A stretch of 64,000 nt of DNA from Fidelibacterota bacterium. Lineage in GTDB: Bacteria > Fidelibacterota > UBA2242. Location: assembly GCA_049975265.1 (NCBI GenBank), contig JBNGDF010000007.1, positions 63,542 through 127,541 on the forward strand, given 5' to 3'. A model generated the notes under the pieces. That model saw nothing but the letters and a program-made list of their open reading frames with translations. It was not told where the DNA came from and ran no database searches. Position numbers and translations under genes: made by a program. Every line of letters starts with the position of its first letter. Position 1 is the stretch's first letter. Below are positions 11,228 through 21,563 of the stretch, piece by piece.

Positions 11228-12361
11228 TTACCCGGCATAAGGCTCCGCCAGATATCGCCTGGCTTCCTCCATAGCACTGCTGCGATTGTCCAGTGAAGCA
11301 GCCTTTTGATATAGTTCAAGAGCAGCCTGCCGTTTGCCCTGCAGATCATAGATTTTACCCAGACGCACATAGGCATTGCCCAGATCGAAATCCATCTCTG
11401 AGTCGTAAGCCGCAATATATTCGGACAGCAACCGCGCCGCCAGTTCCAGATCACCTTCGAGAAACGCCCGGCTGCCGTGAAAAAGCTTCAGACGCTGCTT
11501 ATATTCCTTATGAAAAAAGGGCTCCATACCGGGCAGACGCTTTTCGATTCTCTTCAGGTTTTCGGTTACGTCCGGGTTGCCGGTCTGAATTTTCATCTCC
11601 GCGTACATGTAATTGAAATAGGGGTTGTCGGGGAACTCTTCCAGTAGCATATCCAGCCAGCGTTGCGCCTCGCCGTAATTGGCTTCGAAGTAAATATTGA
11701 GATAGGCTAAAAGGCTGCGCGCTTCATAACGGCTATAGTTCCCCTGCAGGGCAGCAGTTTCAATTTGCTGCAAGCCCTCTTCCTTGGAGCCGGAAATTTG
11801 CAGAATCCAGGAGGCAATTTTCATGAACTTTGACGAGAGCCCGACATAATAATTAAAAACACCGAAAGCAATGATAATATCGGGATTGTCGGGATTTATT
11901 TTCAGCGCCGATTTAAAGTTGCGAATAATGCGATAACCACTGATTAACACTCCCAGATAATCCTTTTCCGCCAGCAGGACCCGTGCCCGGAGTCCGTTCG
12001 CCAGCCCCATATAGTAGATAATTTCCGAGTTATCCGGGTCCAGCACCAGCTGCCGGCGATAATCGAGCAGTACATCTTCAATATCCGCCAACAATTCCCG
12101 ATTCCCGGCGGCATGCCCGTAATTGCCCTGATTGTAAATCCATTCGTTGGCGACCGCGCCGAGCGGACCGAGCGGATGATAGGGTTCATTCCCCGCAACC
12201 TCTAAAAAAATATCCCGCGCCTGTTTATGCTCCATCCGGTTCATGGCTTTCAGTGCTTCCTGCAGGCGCGCCTCCTGCATTTCAGCGGTCTGCGCTCCGA
12301 GCGGGAGAGCCATCGGGAGCGAAAAACAAATATTCAGCAGAATGATCTGGAAATATTTCAT
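11228..12361 (-). CDS. Exported TPR-repeat protein
   Basis: Signal peptide MKYFQIILLNICFSLPMALPLGA; multiple TPR-like helical repeats. Confidence 0.75.
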   Translation of the reverse strand: MKYFQIILLNICFSLPMALPLGAQTAEMQEARLQEALKAMNRMEHKQARDIFLEVAGNEPYHPLGPLGAVANEWIYNQGNYGHAAGNRELLADIEDVLLDYRRQLVLDPDNSEIIYYMGLANGLRARVLLAEKDYLGVLISGYRIIRNFKSALKINPDNPDIIIAFGVFNYYVGLSSKFMKIASWILQISGSKEEGLQQIETAALQGNYSRYEARSLLAYLNIYFEANYGEAQRWLDMLLEEFPDNPYFNYMYAEMKIQTGNPDVTENLKRIEKRLPGMEPFFHKEYKQRLKLFHGSRAFLEGDLELAARLLSEYIAAYDSEMDFDLGNAYVRLGKIYDLQGKRQAALELYQKAASLDNRSSAMEEARRYLAEPYAG

Positions 12362-12448
12362 TAAATCCCGTCTTTTTACCGGACGTTTAGGAAAATGCCC
12401 CAATTACTCGGGGCATTTCGATTATCATCACGCAAGCGTTCAATCGGA

Positions 12449-13381
12449 TTATTCAATAAAGTCGGCTTCCATGAAATCTTCCAGGCGAAATCGCCCTTCC
12501 TTTTCCAGTTCGCGGACCTTTTCGACAATCAGTTTCTGTGCCGCTTCCACTTTGCGGCGCGGCTGCGGACCCTCCAGCAGTTCCATCTCATCTTCCAGAA
12601 TAATCTGGGTCCGCTGCGGCAGTGAATTAATAAAGAGTTCCTTTATCTCTTCACTCTGCCCCTTGAGAGCATAGGCAATTTCCGAGGCTTCCACGGATTT
12701 CAGGACATCGGAAAGAATGTCGTGCGGCAGCTTCGGCAGGTCCTCAAAACTGAAGTAGTGGCGTTTGACCTCCTGGACGATGTCGGGCGCCTCTTTCTCC
12801 AAGTGCTCCAGGAAACGTTTTTCGTCCTTGGGACGCATCTGACTAAGAATGCCGGCGAGATTTTGACCGCCGCCCCGTTTGAATTCCGAAGCCCGGGGAA
12901 TAAAAGCCGATTTCTCCTTTAAATCATTGGCAATACTAACAACCCCTTCGAGAGGAATGTCGTCCAGATGACCGATTTCGGTCACTACTTTGGGCTGAAC
13001 CGTCGGGTCCAGCGCCTGCAGCACATTCACTTGCCGTTCCACGGGTAGCTGGGCAATCGTCAGCGCCATAATCCGCGGCGATTCTGTGCCGATCAGATAG
13101 ACAACCTGTTCGTCGGTAAGGTTGCTTAAAAACTCAAAAGGCTTTTTAGTCTCCTCGGTAGCCGGTGTGAATTTCTCCGAGACAAAACTGAAATAAAACT
13201 CCTCCAGAATCTCCTTTTTAACCTGGAAAGGAATATTATTAATCGTCGCCATCCGCTGACGCACCTTCTGAATCTGCTCCTTGCTCATACCTTTGAAAAG
13301 CTGCAGCGCCAGATTATTTCCCAATGTTTTAAACAGGATGGCTACTTTATCTAAACCGTCGAGATTTTTAAAATCCACCAT
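12449..13381 (-). CDS. fliG: FliG-family motor rotor protein (orphan)
   Basis: N-domain KVAILFKTLG, PFEFL, ESPR (EHPQ-equivalent), GGG linker, YFSFEDL, C-terminal LPQRTQIILEDEMELLEGPQPRRKVEAAQ; AAGGAGG RBS before ATG 13381. Confidence 0.9.
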   Translation of the reverse strand: MVDFKNLDGLDKVAILFKTLGNNLALQLFKGMSKEQIQKVRQRMATINNIPFQVKKEILEEFYFSFVSEKFTPATEETKKPFEFLSNLTDEQVVYLIGTESPRIMALTIAQLPVERQVNVLQALDPTVQPKVVTEIGHLDDIPLEGVVSIANDLKEKSAFIPRASEFKRGGGQNLAGILSQMRPKDEKRFLEHLEKEAPDIVQEVKRHYFSFEDLPKLPHDILSDVLKSVEASEIAYALKGQSEEIKELFINSLPQRTQIILEDEMELLEGPQPRRKVEAAQKLIVEKVRELEKEGRFRLEDFMEADFIE

Positions 13382-13395
13382 TTTTTCCTTCCTCC

Positions 13396-14829
13396 TTAGA
13401 ATTCTGATTCGCTCTCTTCGGCTTGTTTCTGCTGGCTCAACCACTCATTGATCACGCGGGAAGCCGTCTCGGGCTGACCGACGCTCATGGAGATGACCGA
13501 CTGTTTGATACCCTTCATCTCCTCTTTGGCAGCACCGATATCATAGGATGCTTCCTGCTTGGGTGTTTCGGCTGCCGGTGCACTTGGTGGTGCCTGCTCC
13601 GGCGGCGCAGCGGGTGTCGAAGGCTGGACCGGCTGGGTCGGTTGAGTAGGCGTCGTCTGCGACGGACGCGGTCCCATGGGTACTTTCGTCCCATAACCCC
13701 ATTCCAATTCCTGGCGTTTCTGATGATTGCGCCGATTAACCAGCAGTATAATCACCAGTACTATCAGCGCGACGGCAAAGAGTCCCAAAATGATATAGAA
13801 AACCCGATTGTCCATCTTTGCGAATCCGGGCGGGGTTGTCTCCAGGGCACCCATCTCCAATTCCTGCAGCCTGCGATTGCTTTCCCGCAGCTGCTCCTTG
13901 AGATTGTATAATTCCGTCTCACGGGCATCGGCAAGGGCGCGGGTCTGTTGCCGCTGATCATCGGAAATCTGCGGCGATTCCAGCTGATTTTTCAGGTCTG
14001 AAATCTGTCTGCGCAGCTCCTGAATCCGCAGCGAATCCCGAATGACTGCCTGGCGTTCAAGTTGCTTCTGCTGTTCAATTTGGGATAGTCTTTCGGCTTC
14101 CTGCTGACGGCGCTCGAGATTATCAATCTTTTCAGCGATGTTTTTCAGGATAATGGCTTCCGCGGCGTCCTGATCTTCCCGCTTTTTAAAGGAGGCTGTC
14201 ATAACGCTGATAACATCACCCCGGGAGCGGTCGTAATGGGAGGCGACGGCAACTACCTGACGGACATTTTCGATAATTTCAGGAGTAACCCCATCCTCCA
14301 TAATGATATTGACCTGCTGCCTCTTAATTACCGGAATCGCCGGACCTGTTGAGCGGGTCGTCTTTGCAGATTTTTTTGTAGGAGTCTGAGCGGATTCTCG
14401 GGTAACTTCCTCCGGCGGTCCTTCCCGCAGGGTGGCTGTCGCTGCTTCCTGTTCCGCCCGAACGATCTCCTCCGGTGTCTCGAAGCCGGGTAAAGGCAAT
14501 CCCAAATCCGAGCTGGGTCTGACCGGGCGTTGCTCCTCCGCCTCTGCCGGTGCCGTTTTAACTTGTGTTTGGGCGGTCTCTCCGATTGCCATCTCCGTAT
14601 CTTTCGCCGCCTGAAACTCCAGTTCAACCACCACATCAACTACAAACTTGATATCATCCAGCAGTTTGTCCAGCGCTTCGGTAATCCGCTCACGGAGATT
14701 GTTCTCCAGCATCAGCTTCTGTGAAAGATAGGACAGTTGATTGTCTTGTGATGGTGTCCAGATCACTGTGATAATCAAAATGATCCCAATCAGCATCCAT
14801 TTATTGAATCTTGTCCGACTCTTGAGCAT
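13396..14829 (-). CDS. Truncated FliF-like ring protein (TM1, RBM3-like, coiled coil, TM2, FliG-binding tail)
   Basis: LENNLRERITEALDKLL..FVVDVVVELEF and IKRQQVNI...VASHYDRSRGDVISVMTASF resemble FliF RBM3; tail QPETASRVINEWLSQ resembles the FliF C-terminal helix; directly upstream of fliG. Confidence 0.75.
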   Translation of the reverse strand: MLKSRTRFNKWMLIGIILIITVIWTPSQDNQLSYLSQKLMLENNLRERITEALDKLLDDIKFVVDVVVELEFQAAKDTEMAIGETAQTQVKTAPAEAEEQRPVRPSSDLGLPLPGFETPEEIVRAEQEAATATLREGPPEEVTRESAQTPTKKSAKTTRSTGPAIPVIKRQQVNIIMEDGVTPEIIENVRQVVAVASHYDRSRGDVISVMTASFKKREDQDAAEAIILKNIAEKIDNLERRQQEAERLSQIEQQKQLERQAVIRDSLRIQELRRQISDLKNQLESPQISDDQRQQTRALADARETELYNLKEQLRESNRRLQELEMGALETTPPGFAKMDNRVFYIILGLFAVALIVLVIILLVNRRNHQKRQELEWGYGTKVPMGPRPSQTTPTQPTQPVQPSTPAAPPEQAPPSAPAAETPKQEASYDIGAAKEEMKGIKQSVISMSVGQPETASRVINEWLSQQKQAEESESEF

Positions 14830-14844
14830 CGTCCTTCTCCTAAT

Positions 14845-15528
14845 TTATAAAATTGTCAAAAAGAATATTTCAACACGCCGATTCATCGCCATACGCTCGG
14901 GGGTAGTATTGGCTTCTGCGATCGTTGCTCCGGGAGCCCGGGGACGTGTGTCCGCATAGCCAATCGCCTGAAACCGCTCGGGCGAAATGCCCCGTGCAAT
15001 GTAGTAACGCACCACCTGCGCCGCCCGCGCCGCCGAGAGCTCCCAATTGGAGGGAAACATCGCCGACCGAATCGGTACATTATCGGTATGTCCCTCGATG
15101 GCAATCGGATAATTGGATTTTTTCATCATATCTTCGAATTTATTTAAAATCGGGTAGATACGGGGATTCAGATCGGCACTGCCGATTCCAAAGGATATTT
15201 CACTGGGAATCTTGATGGCGACACCACGCTCGCTGGTCTCCACCTGAATCTGCTCCTGTAAATTTTCCTCCTCAATGACCTTGACTACATCGGAATAGAT
15301 TTCCGCCAAGGAATATTTTTTGGTTTTCGCCTTCTTACCCAGCGCCTGTCCGACGGAATCACTGAACTGCTCCAGCTTGACGGGATCAATTGTAGACATG
15401 GAAAAGAGCAGCACGAAAAAGGTCATCAGCAGCGTCATCATATCGCCGTAGGTCACCAGCCACGGTTCTTGATCACCCCTGGACTCTTCGAATATATTTT
15501 TCTTTTTACGTTTGCCTTCCTCTGCCAT
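14845..15528 (-). CDS. motB: Stator B subunit MotB/PomB with OmpA-like peptidoglycan-binding domain
   Basis: WLVTYGDMMTLLMTFFVLLFSMS (critical Asp), EGHTDNVP, SNWELSAARA, NRRVEI. Confidence 0.93.
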   Translation of the reverse strand: MAEEGKRKKKNIFEESRGDQEPWLVTYGDMMTLLMTFFVLLFSMSTIDPVKLEQFSDSVGQALGKKAKTKKYSLAEIYSDVVKVIEEENLQEQIQVETSERGVAIKIPSEISFGIGSADLNPRIYPILNKFEDMMKKSNYPIAIEGHTDNVPIRSAMFPSNWELSAARAAQVVRYYIARGISPERFQAIGYADTRPRAPGATIAEANTTPERMAMNRRVEIFFLTIL

Positions 15529-15534
15529 CTGACC

Positions 15535-16323
15535 TTATTCCTCGGGTTTTTTCCAGTCACGCGGTCTCAGATAGGAATTCAGTTTTTCACGTACGATCAG
15601 AGGATGCTTGCGGGCATGTATCAGTAAAACTCCCTCAATCAGCATCTGCTGCATCATTGTCTGATTCTTAATCCGGATTTCGAACTTTTCCGCCATGGGA
15701 TTAAAAAACATGTTCGCCAGAATTGTCCCGTAAAACGTCGTGATCAAGGCAGCGCCCATTCCGGCACCCAAAACTGCCATCGGATCGTCACCGCCGCCAG
15801 CCATGTCAGCCATTCCGTACAGCATCACCACCAAACCGATCAGTGTTCCGATCATTCCAAAAGCCGGCGAATATTTGCCCATCGTCCGCAGCACATTGGC
15901 TTCGCCCTTTTCCCGTAATATCCGGTTTTCGATGCGGGTTTCCAGAATTTCCCGAATTTCATCGGGATTATAGCCGTCAATCACCATCTGGAGACCATCA
16001 CGAAGAAAGAAATTTTTGACACTGCCCAAAGATTTTTCCAGTTCCTGCATACTCTTTCGGGCAATCGGTGCCAACTCCACAATAGCATCCACTTCGCTAG
16101 GCAGATCAATCTTCTGCTTTTTGAACACCGCAAAGGTGGAGCGCAGCAAACCGAACACATCCCGCATGGAAAAGCTCAGCAGCGTTGCGGCAAAGGAGCC
16201 GCCTGCCACAATCAGAAAGCTGGACAAGCTTACGAAAACAATAAAATTCGGGGTCAACTGGTAGATTCCCAGTACAATCAGTCCAATTCCGGCAAAGATC
16301 CCCAATAGACTCGCTATATCCAT
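15535..16323 (-). CDS. motA: Stator A subunit MotA/PomA
   Basis: MDIASLLG start, FLRDGLQMVIDG, SPAFGMIGTLIGLV, ALITTFYG, HPLIVREKLNSYL. Confidence 0.93.
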   Translation of the reverse strand: MDIASLLGIFAGIGLIVLGIYQLTPNFIVFVSLSSFLIVAGGSFAATLLSFSMRDVFGLLRSTFAVFKKQKIDLPSEVDAIVELAPIARKSMQELEKSLGSVKNFFLRDGLQMVIDGYNPDEIREILETRIENRILREKGEANVLRTMGKYSPAFGMIGTLIGLVVMLYGMADMAGGGDDPMAVLGAGMGAALITTFYGTILANMFFNPMAEKFEIRIKNQTMMQQMLIEGVLLIHARKHPLIVREKLNSYLRPRDWKKPEE

Positions 16324-16338
16324 ACAGTACTTCCCTCT

Positions 16339-17682
16339 TTATTCCTTTCGCGTTGATCCCGTGCTTCTCAGACGATTTTCATTCAGAGCCCGTAAAATAT
16401 TGCGTACATCATCATATTCCGGGTCGATACGCAGCGCCAGATTCCAGTTGATCGTCGCCCGGTCAATATCACCTAGTTTATAGTAAATGGAACCGCGGCG
16501 GGCGTATGCCAGCGCCAGGTTGGGATTCAGATCGATAGCCGCTTCGACCTCCTGCAGCGCTTCCCGATACTCACCGGCATAGAAATAGCGCAGGGACCGG
16601 GAGAGATGTTTCAGGGCTAAATTGATATTCTGTTCCAGGGCATGTTTCGCCAGTTTGGCGGAACGCACGGAATCTTCCAGAACCGCCGTCTTCTGCCGCA
16701 GCTGGGCGATCTCACTGGTCAAATACTTTATTTCTGACTCGAATATTTTCAGGGAATCTCTCAATTTGGCAATCTCATAATCCGCCGCCTTTAACGTCGA
16801 ATCCAGCTGAATGGCAAACTGTTCTTCCATATCCAGAATTAATTGAGTCTCTTCGTCCACCATCCCCTCAAGCCGACGGCGGCGTGCGCTTTCCGGTTTG
16901 ACTCTGGGAATCCGAAAATCCAAACCAATATTCAGACTGGGGTAATTCTTGGTGGCACCGAGGTTAAAATCTTCCGCTCCAAAATTGTACAATTTGACCA
17001 GATTGTTTACGCCAAGCATCAGGTTATAGTCCTTGGTAAAGGGAATCCGCACACCGGCATTGATCCCGCCGCCGTCGAATTCGCCGATAAATTCTACCCC
17101 GCCCCGCTCCGCCATGATGCTGGTATGGAGCAGAATTCCCGCAAATACTCCGGCACTGGTGGTGGAGTCGCTGCCAAATCCGGTCGCCAGCCCTCCGGTC
17201 CCAAAACCCATATAGGTACAGAGATTGCTGGATTCAAACTGCTTTTCGTTGCTGATCACACCGAAAATAGACAGGGTTTTTGTGTCGATGTTGAGCTCCT
17301 TGTCACCCTGCTTCAACACCAGGTCATGTATCCCGGCGGAAAAACTGATATCTCCGTAGACAAACAGACGCTTCTGAAAATGCAGCCCGAATTCCACCGG
17401 CGGACCGGAACCGACACCCTGGATAGAGGTCACCCCGATTTTGAAGGTATTGGACAGATCAGTTTCGAAAAACACTCCTCTCGTAATCAGTGTATCGGCA
17501 AACCCATAGATGTCGGTACAAATTCCTGTCCGGAACACATAGGGGGTCCGATAGATACTGCTGGTGGGAATTTTCATCATGTAGCCGGGCTTCGTAAATG
17601 CAACCCGGGTTATCTGGCCGGAGAGCGAGACGGTCAGGATTATGCTTGTCAAAATTTGGATATAACCACGTTTTATCATCAA
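16339..17682 (-). CDS. Putative outer-membrane beta-barrel (YjbH-like) with C-terminal coiled coil and TPR
   Basis: Signal peptide; ~240 aa of alternating beta strands ending SLNIGLDF; heptad region; TPR ALAYARRGSIYYKLGDIDRATINWNLALRIDP. Confidence 0.65.
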   Translation of the reverse strand: MMIKRGYIQILTSIILTVSLSGQITRVAFTKPGYMMKIPTSSIYRTPYVFRTGICTDIYGFADTLITRGVFFETDLSNTFKIGVTSIQGVGSGPPVEFGLHFQKRLFVYGDISFSAGIHDLVLKQGDKELNIDTKTLSIFGVISNEKQFESSNLCTYMGFGTGGLATGFGSDSTTSAGVFAGILLHTSIMAERGGVEFIGEFDGGGINAGVRIPFTKDYNLMLGVNNLVKLYNFGAEDFNLGATKNYPSLNIGLDFRIPRVKPESARRRRLEGMVDEETQLILDMEEQFAIQLDSTLKAADYEIAKLRDSLKIFESEIKYLTSEIAQLRQKTAVLEDSVRSAKLAKHALEQNINLALKHLSRSLRYFYAGEYREALQEVEAAIDLNPNLALAYARRGSIYYKLGDIDRATINWNLALRIDPEYDDVRNILRALNENRLRSTGSTRKE

Positions 17683-17701
17683 TTCCTACTCCCCTTTGGT
17701 C

Positions 17702-18454
17702 TCAATCCATGGCGCCCAATCGTTTCAGTTCCAGGTCTGCCAGCTTGGCCATCTGACCCTCCGGAAATCGCCTGAGAAGCCGTCTAAAAAATATTTCCGC
17801 CATCCTTTTATCCCCCAGTTTGCGGTAGGTCACTGCCGTCAGAAACAGGGCATCATCGAGATTTTCGCACAGCGGATATTCTACGACTTTTTTCAGATAT
17901 TCTAAAGCAAGATATTCGTCTTTCAGATAAATATAACAGTTACCAATCCAGAAATAGGCATCGCCGATCATAGCGCCGGGCAGGTCACTTTCAATGCTTT
18001 TCTGAAAGTAATCCACGGCAACAGGATAATTTCTTGTCAGATAAGCCGCCTGCCCCTTCTCAAAAAAACGCTCACCCTCTTTCTTGGTATAACGGATACG
18101 GGGATTACCCAGATTGGCATGGGGGGACTGAAAAACGAGATGTTTCAGCCGCTGATTCTCGATTACCAGTGAATCGACCAAGTTTCGGATTTCCGTTAAC
18201 TGCTGTTCGACTTGTGCATGACCGTGGGAAAGGGCCAAAGAGAGGGAGTCTATTTGGTTCTGCAATTGAACCATCATTGGGTTCGCAACGCCAATGCCGT
18301 GAAGGGGGGCAGACTCCCTCGCTGGCTCTATGGTTATCCCTAAATCGTACATAAATCCCTGATCCGCCGTCCCCCGGCTGCTATCGGCTTTCTGGGCAAA
18401 TATCGCGAGGGGCATAATCAACATCAGTGCCAATCGATTCACATTCCCATTCAA
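17702..18454 (-). CDS. Periplasmic coiled-coil + TPR protein (CpoB/YbgF-like)
   Basis: Signal peptide; coiled coil; DAYFWIGNCY, DDALF, RRFP TPR pattern. Start codon uncertain (TTG 18454 or GTG 18442). Confidence 0.75.
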   Translation of the reverse strand: MNGNVNRLALMLIMPLAIFAQKADSSRGTADQGFMYDLGITIEPARESAPLHGIGVANPMMVQLQNQIDSLSLALSHGHAQVEQQLTEIRNLVDSLVIENQRLKHLVFQSPHANLGNPRIRYTKKEGERFFEKGQAAYLTRNYPVAVDYFQKSIESDLPGAMIGDAYFWIGNCYIYLKDEYLALEYLKKVVEYPLCENLDDALFLTAVTYRKLGDKRMAEIFFRRLLRRFPEGQMAKLADLELKRLGAMD

Positions 18455-19245
18455 AATTTTTCTTGGGTCGTTAAATATTTCCGGGCTTTTTCCACCAGTT
18501 CACTGTCTGGAAATTCCCGCTCCAGCCGCCGGAAGGCAGCCAGTGCATCCGGCTGATTGTTCATTTTCAGATAGCTCAGACCGATCTTGAACAGCGCCGC
18601 ATCGGCTTTATTGCCATCGCCCAGAGGTTTCACTTTCTGAAACGCTTCCACGGCTTGTGGATATTTTTCCTGCGAATAGAGGTTTTCGCCAAGCCAGTAC
18701 TGGCAGTTATCCGCCAACGGATGCTGTCGGCTCGTTTGCAGCAATATCTGAAAGCGCTTCATACTGGCTGAATAATCCCGGTCGAAATAGAGGTTCAACG
18801 CCTCATTGTATTGTGTCCGGTATTCCGAATCGTTCACCTCGTGAACCAGCGTATCGGCATCCTCTGCCACCACGTTGTTGGATTTGATCGATTCCAGAAT
18901 CTCTTCCGTCAGGGCTTTGTCCTCATCAAAGGTGTTCACAATGAGCTTGAAATTTTCCACCTGATTCTGCTGCTCTTTGAGTGAATCCACTTCCGACTGT
19001 TTCGCCATCAGCGAGTCTCGCAGCTGCCTGTTATACTGTTTCAACCGCTGGATTTCTTCCCGAATTGCCTGGAGCTCGGCATCGTGAACGCTGATCTCGG
19101 ACTGCAGCTCCAGTACCTCGACGTTTTTATCGCTGAGTTCGGCTTTTTTTTCAGAAATCTCGTTAACAGTGGAATCGGTCTGGGCTGCAATGACCATGAT
19201 CATCCCTATGAGCAGTGCGAGAGCTTTGATCCGGAGAGCCGTCAT
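18451..19245 (-). CDS. Periplasmic coiled-coil + TPR protein (CpoB/YbgF-like)
   Basis: TAATG coupling at 19245; long coiled coil; HPLADNCQYWLGE, KADAALFKIG, FPDSE motifs typical of CpoB. Confidence 0.8.
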   Translation of the reverse strand: MTALRIKALALLIGMIMVIAAQTDSTVNEISEKKAELSDKNVEVLELQSEISVHDAELQAIREEIQRLKQYNRQLRDSLMAKQSEVDSLKEQQNQVENFKLIVNTFDEDKALTEEILESIKSNNVVAEDADTLVHEVNDSEYRTQYNEALNLYFDRDYSASMKRFQILLQTSRQHPLADNCQYWLGENLYSQEKYPQAVEAFQKVKPLGDGNKADAALFKIGLSYLKMNNQPDALAAFRRLEREFPDSELVEKARKYLTTQEKF

Positions 19246-20204
19246 TACTGATACTGCTCCCATTCGATGGTGTAGGAATACCCGATAAAACTGCCAAAAT
19301 CCTTCGGGATGATCAGTTCAAATTTTCCCGTCGCTCCGGGCAGAAGCGAATTATTGGTCGTGATACCCGAATCCTCAAAGGTGTAATAACTGCCCTCGAC
19401 GAAAGCGGTGCGGGTTTTGGTGTCACCACTCCAGTTTTTACGAAAAATAAAATTAACTTTGACGAAATCCGCCCGCCGGGCACCGATATTCTTCACCTCA
19501 CCGGAAAAGATGGTGTTCCCCGAACGGTCTTTCTGCTCACTGATATTACCCACCAGAACACAGTTGGGCGTCTTGGCGCTGCTTTCCGACAGCTGTGCCG
19601 GCTCGCTGGCTTGGGAAACATAACCGGGCTGTGGCACCGGCGGATAGGCGGCGCTTTTCTGGACATCGCTGACCAGCTCCTGGGGTATATATTTCTGGGC
19701 AGGTTCTTCCGGCACGTTGGTAATAACCCGGACAATCGAGGCTTTTTCCAGCACGAGATACCCGATCAGGGTCTCGACCTTGACGATCTTATCATCCTGG
19801 TAAATTATTTTTCCGTAAATGGATGTACCGTTATCGGTGATAATTTCCTTATCATAGATTGCCAGCGGATTCATCCACATCTGACTGTTAGCTTGCAACT
19901 CTTCCAGTTGAGAACGCAGATGCTTGAGTTCGGCGGCGAGCTTTTTCACTTCAAAAGTCAGCTCATTTACCACATAATTCGCATCGGCGCTGCTGCTCCG
20001 TATGGGAGCCGCCGGCACGGTTTTTACCTCTGCCGGAGTCTCTCCAGTCGCTCCGGATGCTGTTTCTGTCCGGATTTCGCTCGTTGTCTGAGCGGTCTGA
20101 ATCTGTTCCGTCTCACTCTTGTCTGCGGTCCTGCTGCCGAACAGGCTGCACCCCTGGACAAGGGGAACTATGAGGAGGGCTGCAAAAAATATTTTGGCTT
20201 TCAT
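19245..20204 (-). CDS. Lipoprotein with coiled coil, small beta-domain and C-terminal Ig-like (FxLYD-type) domain
   Basis: Lipobox LVQG-C; low-complexity linker; C-terminal FSGEVKNIGARRADFVKVNF...LLPGATGKFEL. Confidence 0.75.
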   Translation of the reverse strand: MKAKIFFAALLIVPLVQGCSLFGSRTADKSETEQIQTAQTTSEIRTETASGATGETPAEVKTVPAAPIRSSSADANYVVNELTFEVKKLAAELKHLRSQLEELQANSQMWMNPLAIYDKEIITDNGTSIYGKIIYQDDKIVKVETLIGYLVLEKASIVRVITNVPEEPAQKYIPQELVSDVQKSAAYPPVPQPGYVSQASEPAQLSESSAKTPNCVLVGNISEQKDRSGNTIFSGEVKNIGARRADFVKVNFIFRKNWSGDTKTRTAFVEGSYYTFEDSGITTNNSLLPGATGKFELIIPKDFGSFIGYSYTIEWEQYQ

Positions 20205-20273: not shown

Positions 20274-20303
20274 AATATAGTCTTCATATCGGGTGAATGT
20301 CAA
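20274..20303 (-). promoter_or_regulatory. Sigma70-type promoter for the motor operon
   Basis: Minus strand TTGACA-N18-TATATT, about 70 bp upstream of ATG 20204. Confidence 0.6.
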
Positions 20304-20426: not shown

Positions 20427-21563
20427 TCACTTGAACGGAAAACGTAACAGGGCTGCCATATGTCCATATTTTTCCATCGGCAGCTGGATATATTGCACGT
20501 TCACCCCCTGTTGCAGAGCCAAATGCAGGATATGTTCATTGATGTTCTGGGTACGTTCCAAAGGACCGCCGTGTTTAGGACATTCCGCCTCCGGTGAAAG
20601 GTCCAGATAGTTACAGTGCCGGCAAAAGACCCCTTTGCGCTGATAACTGTTGTTCAGTAAAATCGTATCGATCCATTTATCCCGCAGTTTTGGCAGAATA
20701 GCGTCGATTCCTTCCATTGTCTGACCGGCTTTCTTCTGATTTTCAAACTGTTGTAGCAGCTCCTTCTCAAATTTCAAGCGGGATTCCCGGCTGGCTTTCT
20801 GCACCTTTTCAAAGACATCGTTCAGCGGCGCATGGGGTTCGATGTCGATTACGGCGGTGACCTTCCCATCGACGTAATCGTGCAGATACTTGCGAAATTC
20901 TCCGATGGACTCCCGCCGTCCGCCGAGAACGACCCAGTTAAAATCGTGGGACTTATTCAGCACAAACATTTTTTGCGCTACCTCTTTGTAATGCTGAATA
21001 ATGCCCTGATGGATATTTCGCTCCACCTTCCGCTCCTGGCGTCCCTGATAGCCTCCTACCTTCACCGATTCCGGCGCATTATCGGTGACTTTAAACAACT
21101 CTTTAAAATCACCCAAGGATTGTTCAAATATGCGCGCCTTGGATTTGTCAATCAACAGTACGCCGTACCGACGGTATTCGCTGAACAGCTGCGACAGCTG
21201 ATAGATATATGGTTTTGGTTGTATGACCAACTCATTCTGCAGGGGAATTTTCAGGTTTATGACCTTCCAAAATCCGCTTTTGCTCTGACAAAAGCAGATC
21301 GAGCTGACATATTTCGATGTATCCAGTTCCACCTCAAACCAGTTGACAATACGATCAAAGTCATCGAGAACGGAGTTTTTCTCTACCTCGGTCAACTGCT
21401 TGAAGTAGGTGGTATTTTTTTTATACCGGATCATCTTTTTCAATTCGACAAGGTGAGTCTTATGGTTTCCGTTTTTAATATTCGCCGTAAAATAGGCACT
21501 GGTTACCGGATAATCATTTTGGGTAAAGTGTGCCAACTCCCTGACAACATCATTTTTGATCAT
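20427..21563 (-). CDS. Bacterial archaeo-eukaryotic release factor (baeRF, family 10-like)
   Basis: PVTSAY, PKPYIYQL, LLIDKSKARIF, GGYQGRQERK loop, Zn-ribbon CRHC..CPKH, C-terminal MAALLRF. Confidence 0.8.
   Translation of the reverse strand: MIKNDVVRELAHFTQNDYPVTSAYFTANIKNGNHKTHLVELKKMIRYKKNTTYFKQLTEVEKNSVLDDFDRIVNWFEVELDTSKYVSSICFCQSKSGFWKVINLKIPLQNELVIQPKPYIYQLSQLFSEYRRYGVLLIDKSKARIFEQSLGDFKELFKVTDNAPESVKVGGYQGRQERKVERNIHQGIIQHYKEVAQKMFVLNKSHDFNWVVLGGRRESIGEFRKYLHDYVDGKVTAVIDIEPHAPLNDVFEKVQKASRESRLKFEKELLQQFENQKKAGQTMEGIDAILPKLRDKWIDTILLNNSYQRKGVFCRHCNYLDLSPEAECPKHGGPLERTQNINEHILHLALQQGVNVQYIQLPMEKYGHMAALLRFPFK

Follow-up and report, generated by a model that had tools for sequence, protein, structure and literature searches.

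A MotAB, FliF-like and FliG operon with outer-membrane partners in Marinimicrobia: a candidate stator-rotor machine outside the flagellum

To our knowledge, FliG and FliF have been treated as proteins of the flagellum only. Among the closest described systems is the flagellar torque core: the FliF MS ring, FliG and the MotA5B2 or PomA5B2 stator (PDB 8Z5V, 6SCN, 1LKV, 8UCS and 8BRD). A 2025 phylogeny treats the MotA torque interface as specific to the flagellum (PMC12505986), and a survey found rotor proteins in 11% of non-motile species, leaving an alternative function open (10.1101/2024.12.05.626484). Here we analyze a 64,000-nucleotide stretch of a Fidelibacterota genome (GenBank assembly GCA_049975265.1, contig JBNGDF010000007.1, positions 63,542 to 127,541 of the forward strand), hereafter the window, which holds an operon for a lipoprotein, two CpoB-like tetratricopeptide repeat (TPR) proteins, a barrel-stalk-TPR protein, MotA, MotB, a FliF-like protein and FliG (Table 1). 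We consider it quite probable that the operon encodes an active, non-flagellar stator-rotor machine.

How does the locus compare with known systems? With the flagellar torque core it has in common the S-ring fold, a three-domain FliG, a stator with plug and peptidoglycan-binding domain, and the main ion and torque residues. Unlike the flagellum, it has no RBM1 or RBM2, export gate, rod, hook, filament, FliM/N or chemotaxis genes; its FliM site is replaced, its FliG N-M linker counts ~27 rather than 54 residues, and it brings outer-membrane partners of its own. By export, axis and switch the cluster is thus no flagellum, yet its construction suits it to operate as the flagellar torque core does. 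Like Tol-Pal, Ton and Agl-Glt, the operon combines 5:2-type motor genes with envelope TPR and barrel partners; those systems, counted among generic ion transporters in PMC12505986, have stators that lack the flagellar torque interface and use TonB- or TolA-like arms, whereas the operon has a flagellar-type MotA with FliF and FliG. Against a Tol-Pal system, its motor is not of TolQ type and the genome has no Pal over cut-off. As in the GldLM motor and hub of Bacteroidota (PMC10994853), an ion-driven inner-membrane motor, a periplasm-spanning arm and outer-membrane partners are predicted here, and SprA and its cargo occur in the phylum. Unlike GldLM, the operon would place MotAB on a FliG ring, and this genome has no match to GldM or to GldL, the latter with a search in which no positive control matched.

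The sequence-only reading had found no export, switch, axial, flagellin or chemotaxis genes of a flagellum in the window, and this holds for the whole genome. In the assembly (95.3% complete, 1.24% contaminated), FlhA, FliP, FliMN_C, Flagellin_N, Flg_bb_rod and CheW gave no match each, and positive controls matched. For rod, hook and filament, tblastn with FlgB, FlgC, FlgD, FlgE, FliE and FliK of a flagellated relative gave no match in the genome, and thirteen proteins of that relative's cluster matched only this fliG, two motA, two motB and three ATPases; the three FliI-like matches, on contig C21, are probably F1 ATPase subunits and Rho. Ten E. coli flagellar queries missed even this fliG at E 1e-4, and because of this their blanks carry little weight; the absence rests on the relative's proteins and the family models. 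A complete flagellar set elsewhere, to which these genes might belong as dispersed parts, was thus looked for across the genome and not found, and the reading of a separate module stands.

We surveyed 276 genomes, each at least 85% complete, of the phylum Marinimicrobia (Neomarinimicrobiota or Fidelibacterota), bearing in mind that related genomes are not independent counts and that drafts miss genes. The barrel gene is present in 204 and FlhA exceeds the cut-off in 63: 46 genomes have both, 158 the barrel alone, 17 FlhA alone and 55 neither. The single-contig genome G063 has the operon and lacks FlhA. The proposed linkage of the upstream genes to motAB-fliF-fliG is conserved across the phylum: of 20 fliG-anchored loci, 19 show the full order lipoprotein, TPR, barrel, motA, motB, fliF-like, fliG, and the remaining one lies at a contig end, and the six non-TPR genes are complete and ordered in 75 of 100 barrel-anchored loci, the other 25 showing an unbroken part of the order. 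The two sets overlap, and 72 distinct loci have all seven core genes. All eight genes of the unit first described occur here, and the conserved core is seven, since the second TPR gene (18451..19263) varies in presence and is missing in many relatives. Flagellated relatives carry their own canonical fliG, separate from that of the operon. Weaker second fliG matches were canonical in 19 of 20 loci, and all three of these whose reading frames were examined lie in what we take, from sequence, to be flgB-flgC-fliE-fliF-fliG-fliH-fliI clusters; the twentieth, L069, is a FliF-FliG fusion.

For the rotor, FliG residues are given in E. coli numbering, and 82 operon FliGs were compared with 19 flagellar FliGs. 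The EHPQR motif is the FliM-binding site of FliG (PMC6290876). H126, Q128 and R160 each occur in 0 of 82 operon FliGs versus 18, 19 and 19 of the 19 flagellar ones, and the commonest replacements, Arg at 128 and Glu at 160, swap charge. Similarly, the stretch from 70 to 124 is mostly 27–28 residues long (31 operon rows measured) versus 54 in every flagellar row. In Salmonella, partial deletion of the FliG N-M region yields a smaller ring that still turns, 31-fold and 358 Å wide versus 34-fold and 416 Å (PMC6445934), and the operon FliG is likewise short-linked; that deletion, however, is a laboratory mutant inside a full flagellum, whereas the operon FliG is natural, keeps FliG_N and occurs without a flagellum. 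Lys264 and a basic residue at 281 are found in 82 of 82 operon FliGs, position 298 is basic in 82 and position 299 in 80. Judged from these alignments, and with residue roles in stator and FliG taken from PMC10374538, the FliG torque surface is conserved but remodelled.

The barrel, stalk, TPR and S-ring anatomy read from the sequence was supported by AlphaFold2 models and by structural matches, all from VIA-align searches. In the FliF-like protein, YscJ_FliF_C is the only Pfam family, and the model (105 rows, pLDDT 73, pTM 0.37) comprises a single domain of the ring-building kind, alongside a helical hairpin, a lone membrane helix and a pair of helices at the C-terminus. A low-complexity insert sits in the ring-building domain, which aligns with the FliF S-ring 8z5v (Z 15.8, rmsd 1.8, 100 residues aligned), the next non-FliF row scoring Z 11.2. 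Neither the family scan nor the model shows RBM1 or RBM2, the domains that enclose the export gate in flagellar FliF, so that in place of RBM1–3 and two membrane helices there is RBM3 only, with a single internal membrane helix in 72 of 72 FliF-like proteins. Of 84 such proteins, 76 have a FliF-like motif at the terminus, and all 84 carry an LPG motif.

The stator is of the flagellar type by sequence, with plug, OmpA-type domain, ion-binding Asp and sodium site. MotA aligns full-length with 8UCS and 8BRD; its best PDB matches are MotA and PomA (E 3e-45 to 6e-39) versus 8e-4 for ExbB, and MotP and PomA models match it at E 1e-54 to 4e-51 versus 6e-4 for tolQ. Conserved residues, in its own numbering, are R89, E96, D116, P153, P209 and T160/T195/T196; across 96 rows R89 is kept in 96, E96 in 95 and D116 in 92. 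The equivalents of PomA R88, K89, E96 and D114 are present in 96, 92 (counting Arg), 95 and 92 of 96 rows, and those of the PomA sodium-site residues T158/T185/T186 in all 96. The phylum's six flagellar MotAs examined also have the three threonines, and the MotB ion-binding Asp is present in 94 of 94 rows. MotAB is therefore predicted to use sodium. Both the operon FliG and the operon MotA group apart from the phylum's flagellar copies.

This genome encodes a second flagellar-type motA (L175:1198-2046, on contig C21) and motB (L176:1462-2145, on contig C5), neither of them paired with a stator partner. The second motA directly follows what we take to be enolase and an ftsB-like gene, and it is often beside the presumed eno-ftsB pair in other genomes. 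Its family tracks the operon across the phylum: at E 1e-64 it matches in 130 of 276 genomes, of which 125 are barrel-positive and 101 lack FlhA, one match being a flagellar copy; in 20 neighborhoods it appears as motA-motB, as motA-motB-motB or alone. A quick tree gives the operon, the second and the flagellar MotAs a branch each. Several stators for the sole FliG of the genome fit a working rotor. At L216, L220, L221, L226, L229, L230 and L234 a motA is followed by two unlike motB genes, with an additional motA-motB set at L220, which suggests a stator with unlike B subunits. In several genomes the gene after the second motB (L217:4867-5454, L235:4959-5549) encodes an exported protein of ~195 residues that matches DUF4352 weakly, and at L225:3312-5381 a DUF4352-like exported protein is fused to Ig/PKD domains.

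What might connect such a motor to the outer membrane? The barrel model (107 rows, mean pLDDT 81.9, pTM 0.53) has 12 strands, a 93-residue helix ~14 nm long with a heptad a/d pattern, and a C-terminal TPR that carries most of the invariant columns of the alignment. The best structural match of the barrel is KdgM (Z 17.4, rmsd 2.2, 162 residues aligned), a match that shows no function: 12-stranded barrels of unrelated function score within 2–3 Z units of it. Against YjbH clusters the Atlas feature score is 0.93 (168 of 256 features shared), and there is no Pfam YjbH hit at E 0.5. Paired covariation over the 72 loci (effective number 31) was discarded as noise, its top pairs crossing membrane compartments.

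Relatives of the rotor are found beyond the operon. A FliG search over 1.8 billion representatives, of which the best 150 were examined, gave 37 proteins of at least 440 residues, or 38 rows with the L069 protein. The LPG motif is present in 29 of these 38, most of the rows have a short linker and the swapped FliM motif, and four of the long rows grouped among canonical FliGs. A mixture-model tree was built from a subsample of 59 rows (12 operon, 17 fused and 30 flagellar), leaving out the four canonical-like rows and L069; in it, operon and fused FliGs split from flagellar FliGs at 100/100. The tree has no reliable root and so does not tell the order of origin. Ten fused proteins were looked up, and two have source names, Elusimicrobia and Deltaproteobacteria. 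In seven of nine fusion loci (three nearly identical), a neighbor ends in a TPR module scoring 47–60 bits against the barrel-TPR profile, versus at most 31 bits for any other of the 6711 frames of this genome, and three fusion loci carry the module on a small lipoprotein-like protein that lacks such a barrel. Because a matching TPR neighbor recurs in these loci, the shared adaptor is more likely the TPR module than the barrel. The genome of L069 has three FliG types, flagellar, operon and a 509-residue FliF-FliG fusion; the fusion locus (L069:8080-11649) continues with two coiled-coil/TPR genes, has no motAB nearby, and encodes a fused protein that had no relatives by word search and sits on a long branch. 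Upstream of the fusion-locus TPR gene, L238:999-2135 and L236:1537-2601 match FlgO weakly (E 0.004, below cut-off); this FlgO-like gene could possibly form an outer-membrane ring.

We propose, at somewhat less than an even chance, that the operon encodes a sodium-driven, one-way rotary motor that passes force across the periplasm to a barrel complex and so pulls or moves surface proteins. By sequence, MotA and MotB retain the ion-binding Asp together with the three threonines and the main torque charges of PomA; from what is known of the family, MotA5B2 would be anchored to peptidoglycan and turned by sodium flow. FliG would co-fold with the FliF-like protein at its C-terminal helices, both forming a ring made smaller by the halved N-M linker. 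The FliM site, FliM/N and CheW are absent, and the ring would accordingly have no switch and turn in one direction; likewise, with no RBM1/2, export gate or rod, it would drive no axial filament. The barrel's stalk and TPR are predicted to reach into the periplasm, where they may meet the ring or the hairpin, helped by the lipoprotein and the TPR proteins. In the weakest step, the motor would act on carriers or adhesins of the outer membrane, as GldLM with its hub does for type IX secretion in Bacteroidota. Of the 276 genomes, 274 encode SprA and one, which is barrel-negative, has a GldM match; in the present genome, type IX C-terminal domains match 88 times (86 over cut-off). In Flavobacterium, release of substrate from SprA needs motor input (PMC10994853). 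With SprA and cargo present, GldM nearly absent and release dependent on a motor, handling of surface proteins is the leading candidate job. The sole GldM match, at G231:C9:11575-13308, may be contamination (5% in that genome). A broader proposal, which we regard as less likely than not, is that split and fused forms together represent an ancient second FliF-FliG-MotAB rotary machine of several phyla, distinct from the flagellum, a small switch-less ring acting on the outer membrane through a conserved TPR adaptor, and that in Marinimicrobia it replaces GldLM in moving or releasing type IX surface proteins.

Several observations weigh against these proposals. Rotation, expression and assembly are presumed, and the low pTM of both models (0.37 and 0.53) makes domain placement uncertain. 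The hairpin is missing in 3 of 68 FliF-like proteins (68 of 72 loci measured) and its region spans 45 to 208 residues, and for these reasons it cannot be a universal link. Of 82 operon FliGs, none has R297, 26 have D288/D289, and 56 have a torque segment shortened by three residues; at the position of PomA R232, none of 96 MotAs has the Arg and all carry Leu, Ile or Met. A new basic pair (238/239) stands 3–4 residues upstream of the R232 position in MotA, where flagellar copies have Gly and Glu; this speaks in favor of the motor, as a basic charge is shifted in both FliG (297 to 298/299) and MotA (R232 to 238/239), as expected of co-adapted partners. SprA persists in each of the 72 barrel-negative genomes, and type IX secretion can therefore do without the operon; no type IX gene lies inside the operon, and nothing ties the loci to each other. 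The GldM model was built on Bacteroidota and may have missed a diverged motor. Among the fusion loci, motA-motB stands beside the fusion in only three of nine. Finally, the only member of the phylum in culture is reported to be non-motile (PMC11652737), which weighs against gliding if the operon is present there; that species is not among the 17 listed members of five barrel clusters.

The same motor might instead serve envelope upkeep or remodelling in a Tol-Pal-like manner, pulling the outer membrane inward or redistributing wall-membrane tethers at division. The two CpoB-like TPR genes of the operon, the position of the second motA and the scarcity of Pal, which exceeds the cut-off in only 10 of 276 genomes and not here, are in keeping with this; however, neither CpoB score reaches the cut-off, and TPRs of a generic kind may explain them. 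Of the 10 genomes with Pal, 9 encode the barrel as well, and Pal is also missing from most genomes that lack the operon. We regard this as rather unlikely. Replacement of Tol-Pal as a presence/absence pattern was rejected, Pal and operon showing no complementarity. A ring that does not turn, in which FliG does no more than dock and gate the stators and these serve as an ion channel that senses load or as a static strut across the envelope, would account for the altered and shortened FliG torque segment of most copies; moreover, no axial load is evident, and a membrane-fixed barrel may resist rotation. Near-invariant torque-face charges on FliG and MotA across the phylum and the retention of several stator sets make it improbable.

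Barrel-plus-TPR arrangements occur in polysaccharide export, and together with the likeness of the barrel to the sugar porin KdgM and to YjbH clusters they raise the idea that the motor drives export or uptake of a polymer that passes through the barrel and is guided in the periplasm by the TPR proteins. No synthase or glycosyltransferase stands in the operon at any locus examined, barrels of unrelated function score nearly as high, the Pfam YjbH search was blank, and three fusion loci use the TPR module without this barrel; this reading, too, is improbable, and marginally the more so. Least probable, and already largely refuted, is a flagellar remnant or dispersed flagellar accessory. The parts are flagellar homologues, 46 genomes carry both barrel and FlhA, and FlhA can be missed in drafts, as in G058, which has a flagellar fliG cluster and no FlhA match; yet 158 barrel-positive genomes, including the single-contig G063, lack FlhA, the genes are intact and conserved, and their FliG and MotA stand apart from the flagellar copies.

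If a force-transmitting rotary motor is correct, it would be the simplest natural stator-rotor motor, and would bear on the origin or repurposing of the flagellar motor. In any case the operon is a concrete, intact seven-gene example of rotor proteins outside flagella that could be expressed and imaged. It occurs in most genomes of an abundant marine phylum, in which motA and fliG matches may be misread as signs of swimming. We found no published description of the module in the literature searched, which lay mostly outside subscription journals, and the phylum is not named in the main text of PMC13277936 or 10.1101/2024.12.05.626484.

The eight tightly packed minus-strand genes of the sequence-only reading were all found where it had placed them (Table 1), with gaps of -19, -4, 19, 15, 6, 15 and 14 bases along the gene order. 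Its start for fliG, GTG 13444, is better replaced by ATG 13381, which gives 310 residues, follows a strong Shine-Dalgarno sequence and agrees with the ~310 residues of most homologues. Co-transcription is suggested by the close packing and by one promoter-like site; this is the best of 20 sites in 11 kb, and shuffled sequence yields 11.5, so it is a consensus match only. No RNA data set holding the operon was listed, a blank with no bearing on expression.

Table 1. Features of the operon and its borders, in window coordinates
Feature	Position	Strand	Remarks
Sigma-70-like promoter site	20274..20303	-	70 bases upstream of first gene; 11 of 12 consensus matches
Exported lipoprotein, 319 aa	19245..20204	-	disordered N-terminus, short coiled coil, two conserved beta-rich domains
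Coiled-coil and CpoB-like TPR protein	18451..19263	-	TIGR02795 E 3e-19, below cut-off; likely start ATG 19245
Exported CpoB-like TPR protein	17702..18454	-	near-universal TPR gene
Barrel-stalk-TPR protein	16339..17682	-	predicted outer-membrane barrel ~48-259, coiled-coil stalk 277-369, C-terminal TPR 372-442
MotA, flagellar (PomA-like) type	15535..16323	-	Pfam MotA_ExbB; predicted sodium-coupled
MotB	14845..15528	-	ion-binding Asp29; Pfam MotB_plug and OmpA-type peptidoglycan-binding domain
FliF-like protein	13396..14829	-	signal peptide, one S-ring (RBM3) domain, hairpin, one membrane helix, FliG-binding-type C-terminal helices
FliG, 310 aa	12449..13381	-	FliG_N/M/C over Pfam cut-off; short N-M linker; FliM-binding motif replaced
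Exported TPR protein	11228..12403	-	45 bases downstream of fliG

The base composition of the operon resembles that of the remainder of the window. CpoB/YbgF models match both operon TPR genes below cut-off. The first gene belongs to no Pfam family; its 75-row alignment has 30 invariant columns, and its Atlas protein cluster has 1160 members, Fidelibacterota being the commonest source. Its designation as a lipoprotein suits this copy and does not extend to the whole family, a lipobox-like Cys being present in 35 of 72 homologues; a stand-alone paralogue with 27% identity lies at 43585-42998 of contig C11 of this genome. The TPR gene downstream of fliG, possibly co-transcribed with the operon, is outside the conserved core and follows fliG in 8 of 20 loci, all of one order. 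In 11 of 20 loci a baeRF10 release-factor-like gene (window 20427-21563) is found upstream of the operon; it is set off by its own intergenic gap and is probably unrelated.

Among the surveyed genomes, family f21 (G104-G124) has the smallest, at 0.8–1.1 Mb, with barrel 0 of 21, FlhA 0 of 21 and SprA 21 of 21. No barrel relatives were found in viral contigs. Records titled Nitrospinales or Lentisphaeria (L112, L146 and L147) contain the operon or barrel gene and are likely mislabelled or mixed bins, and one assembly (G130) contains two differing operon copies, L160 and L161, reflecting either duplication or a mixed bin.

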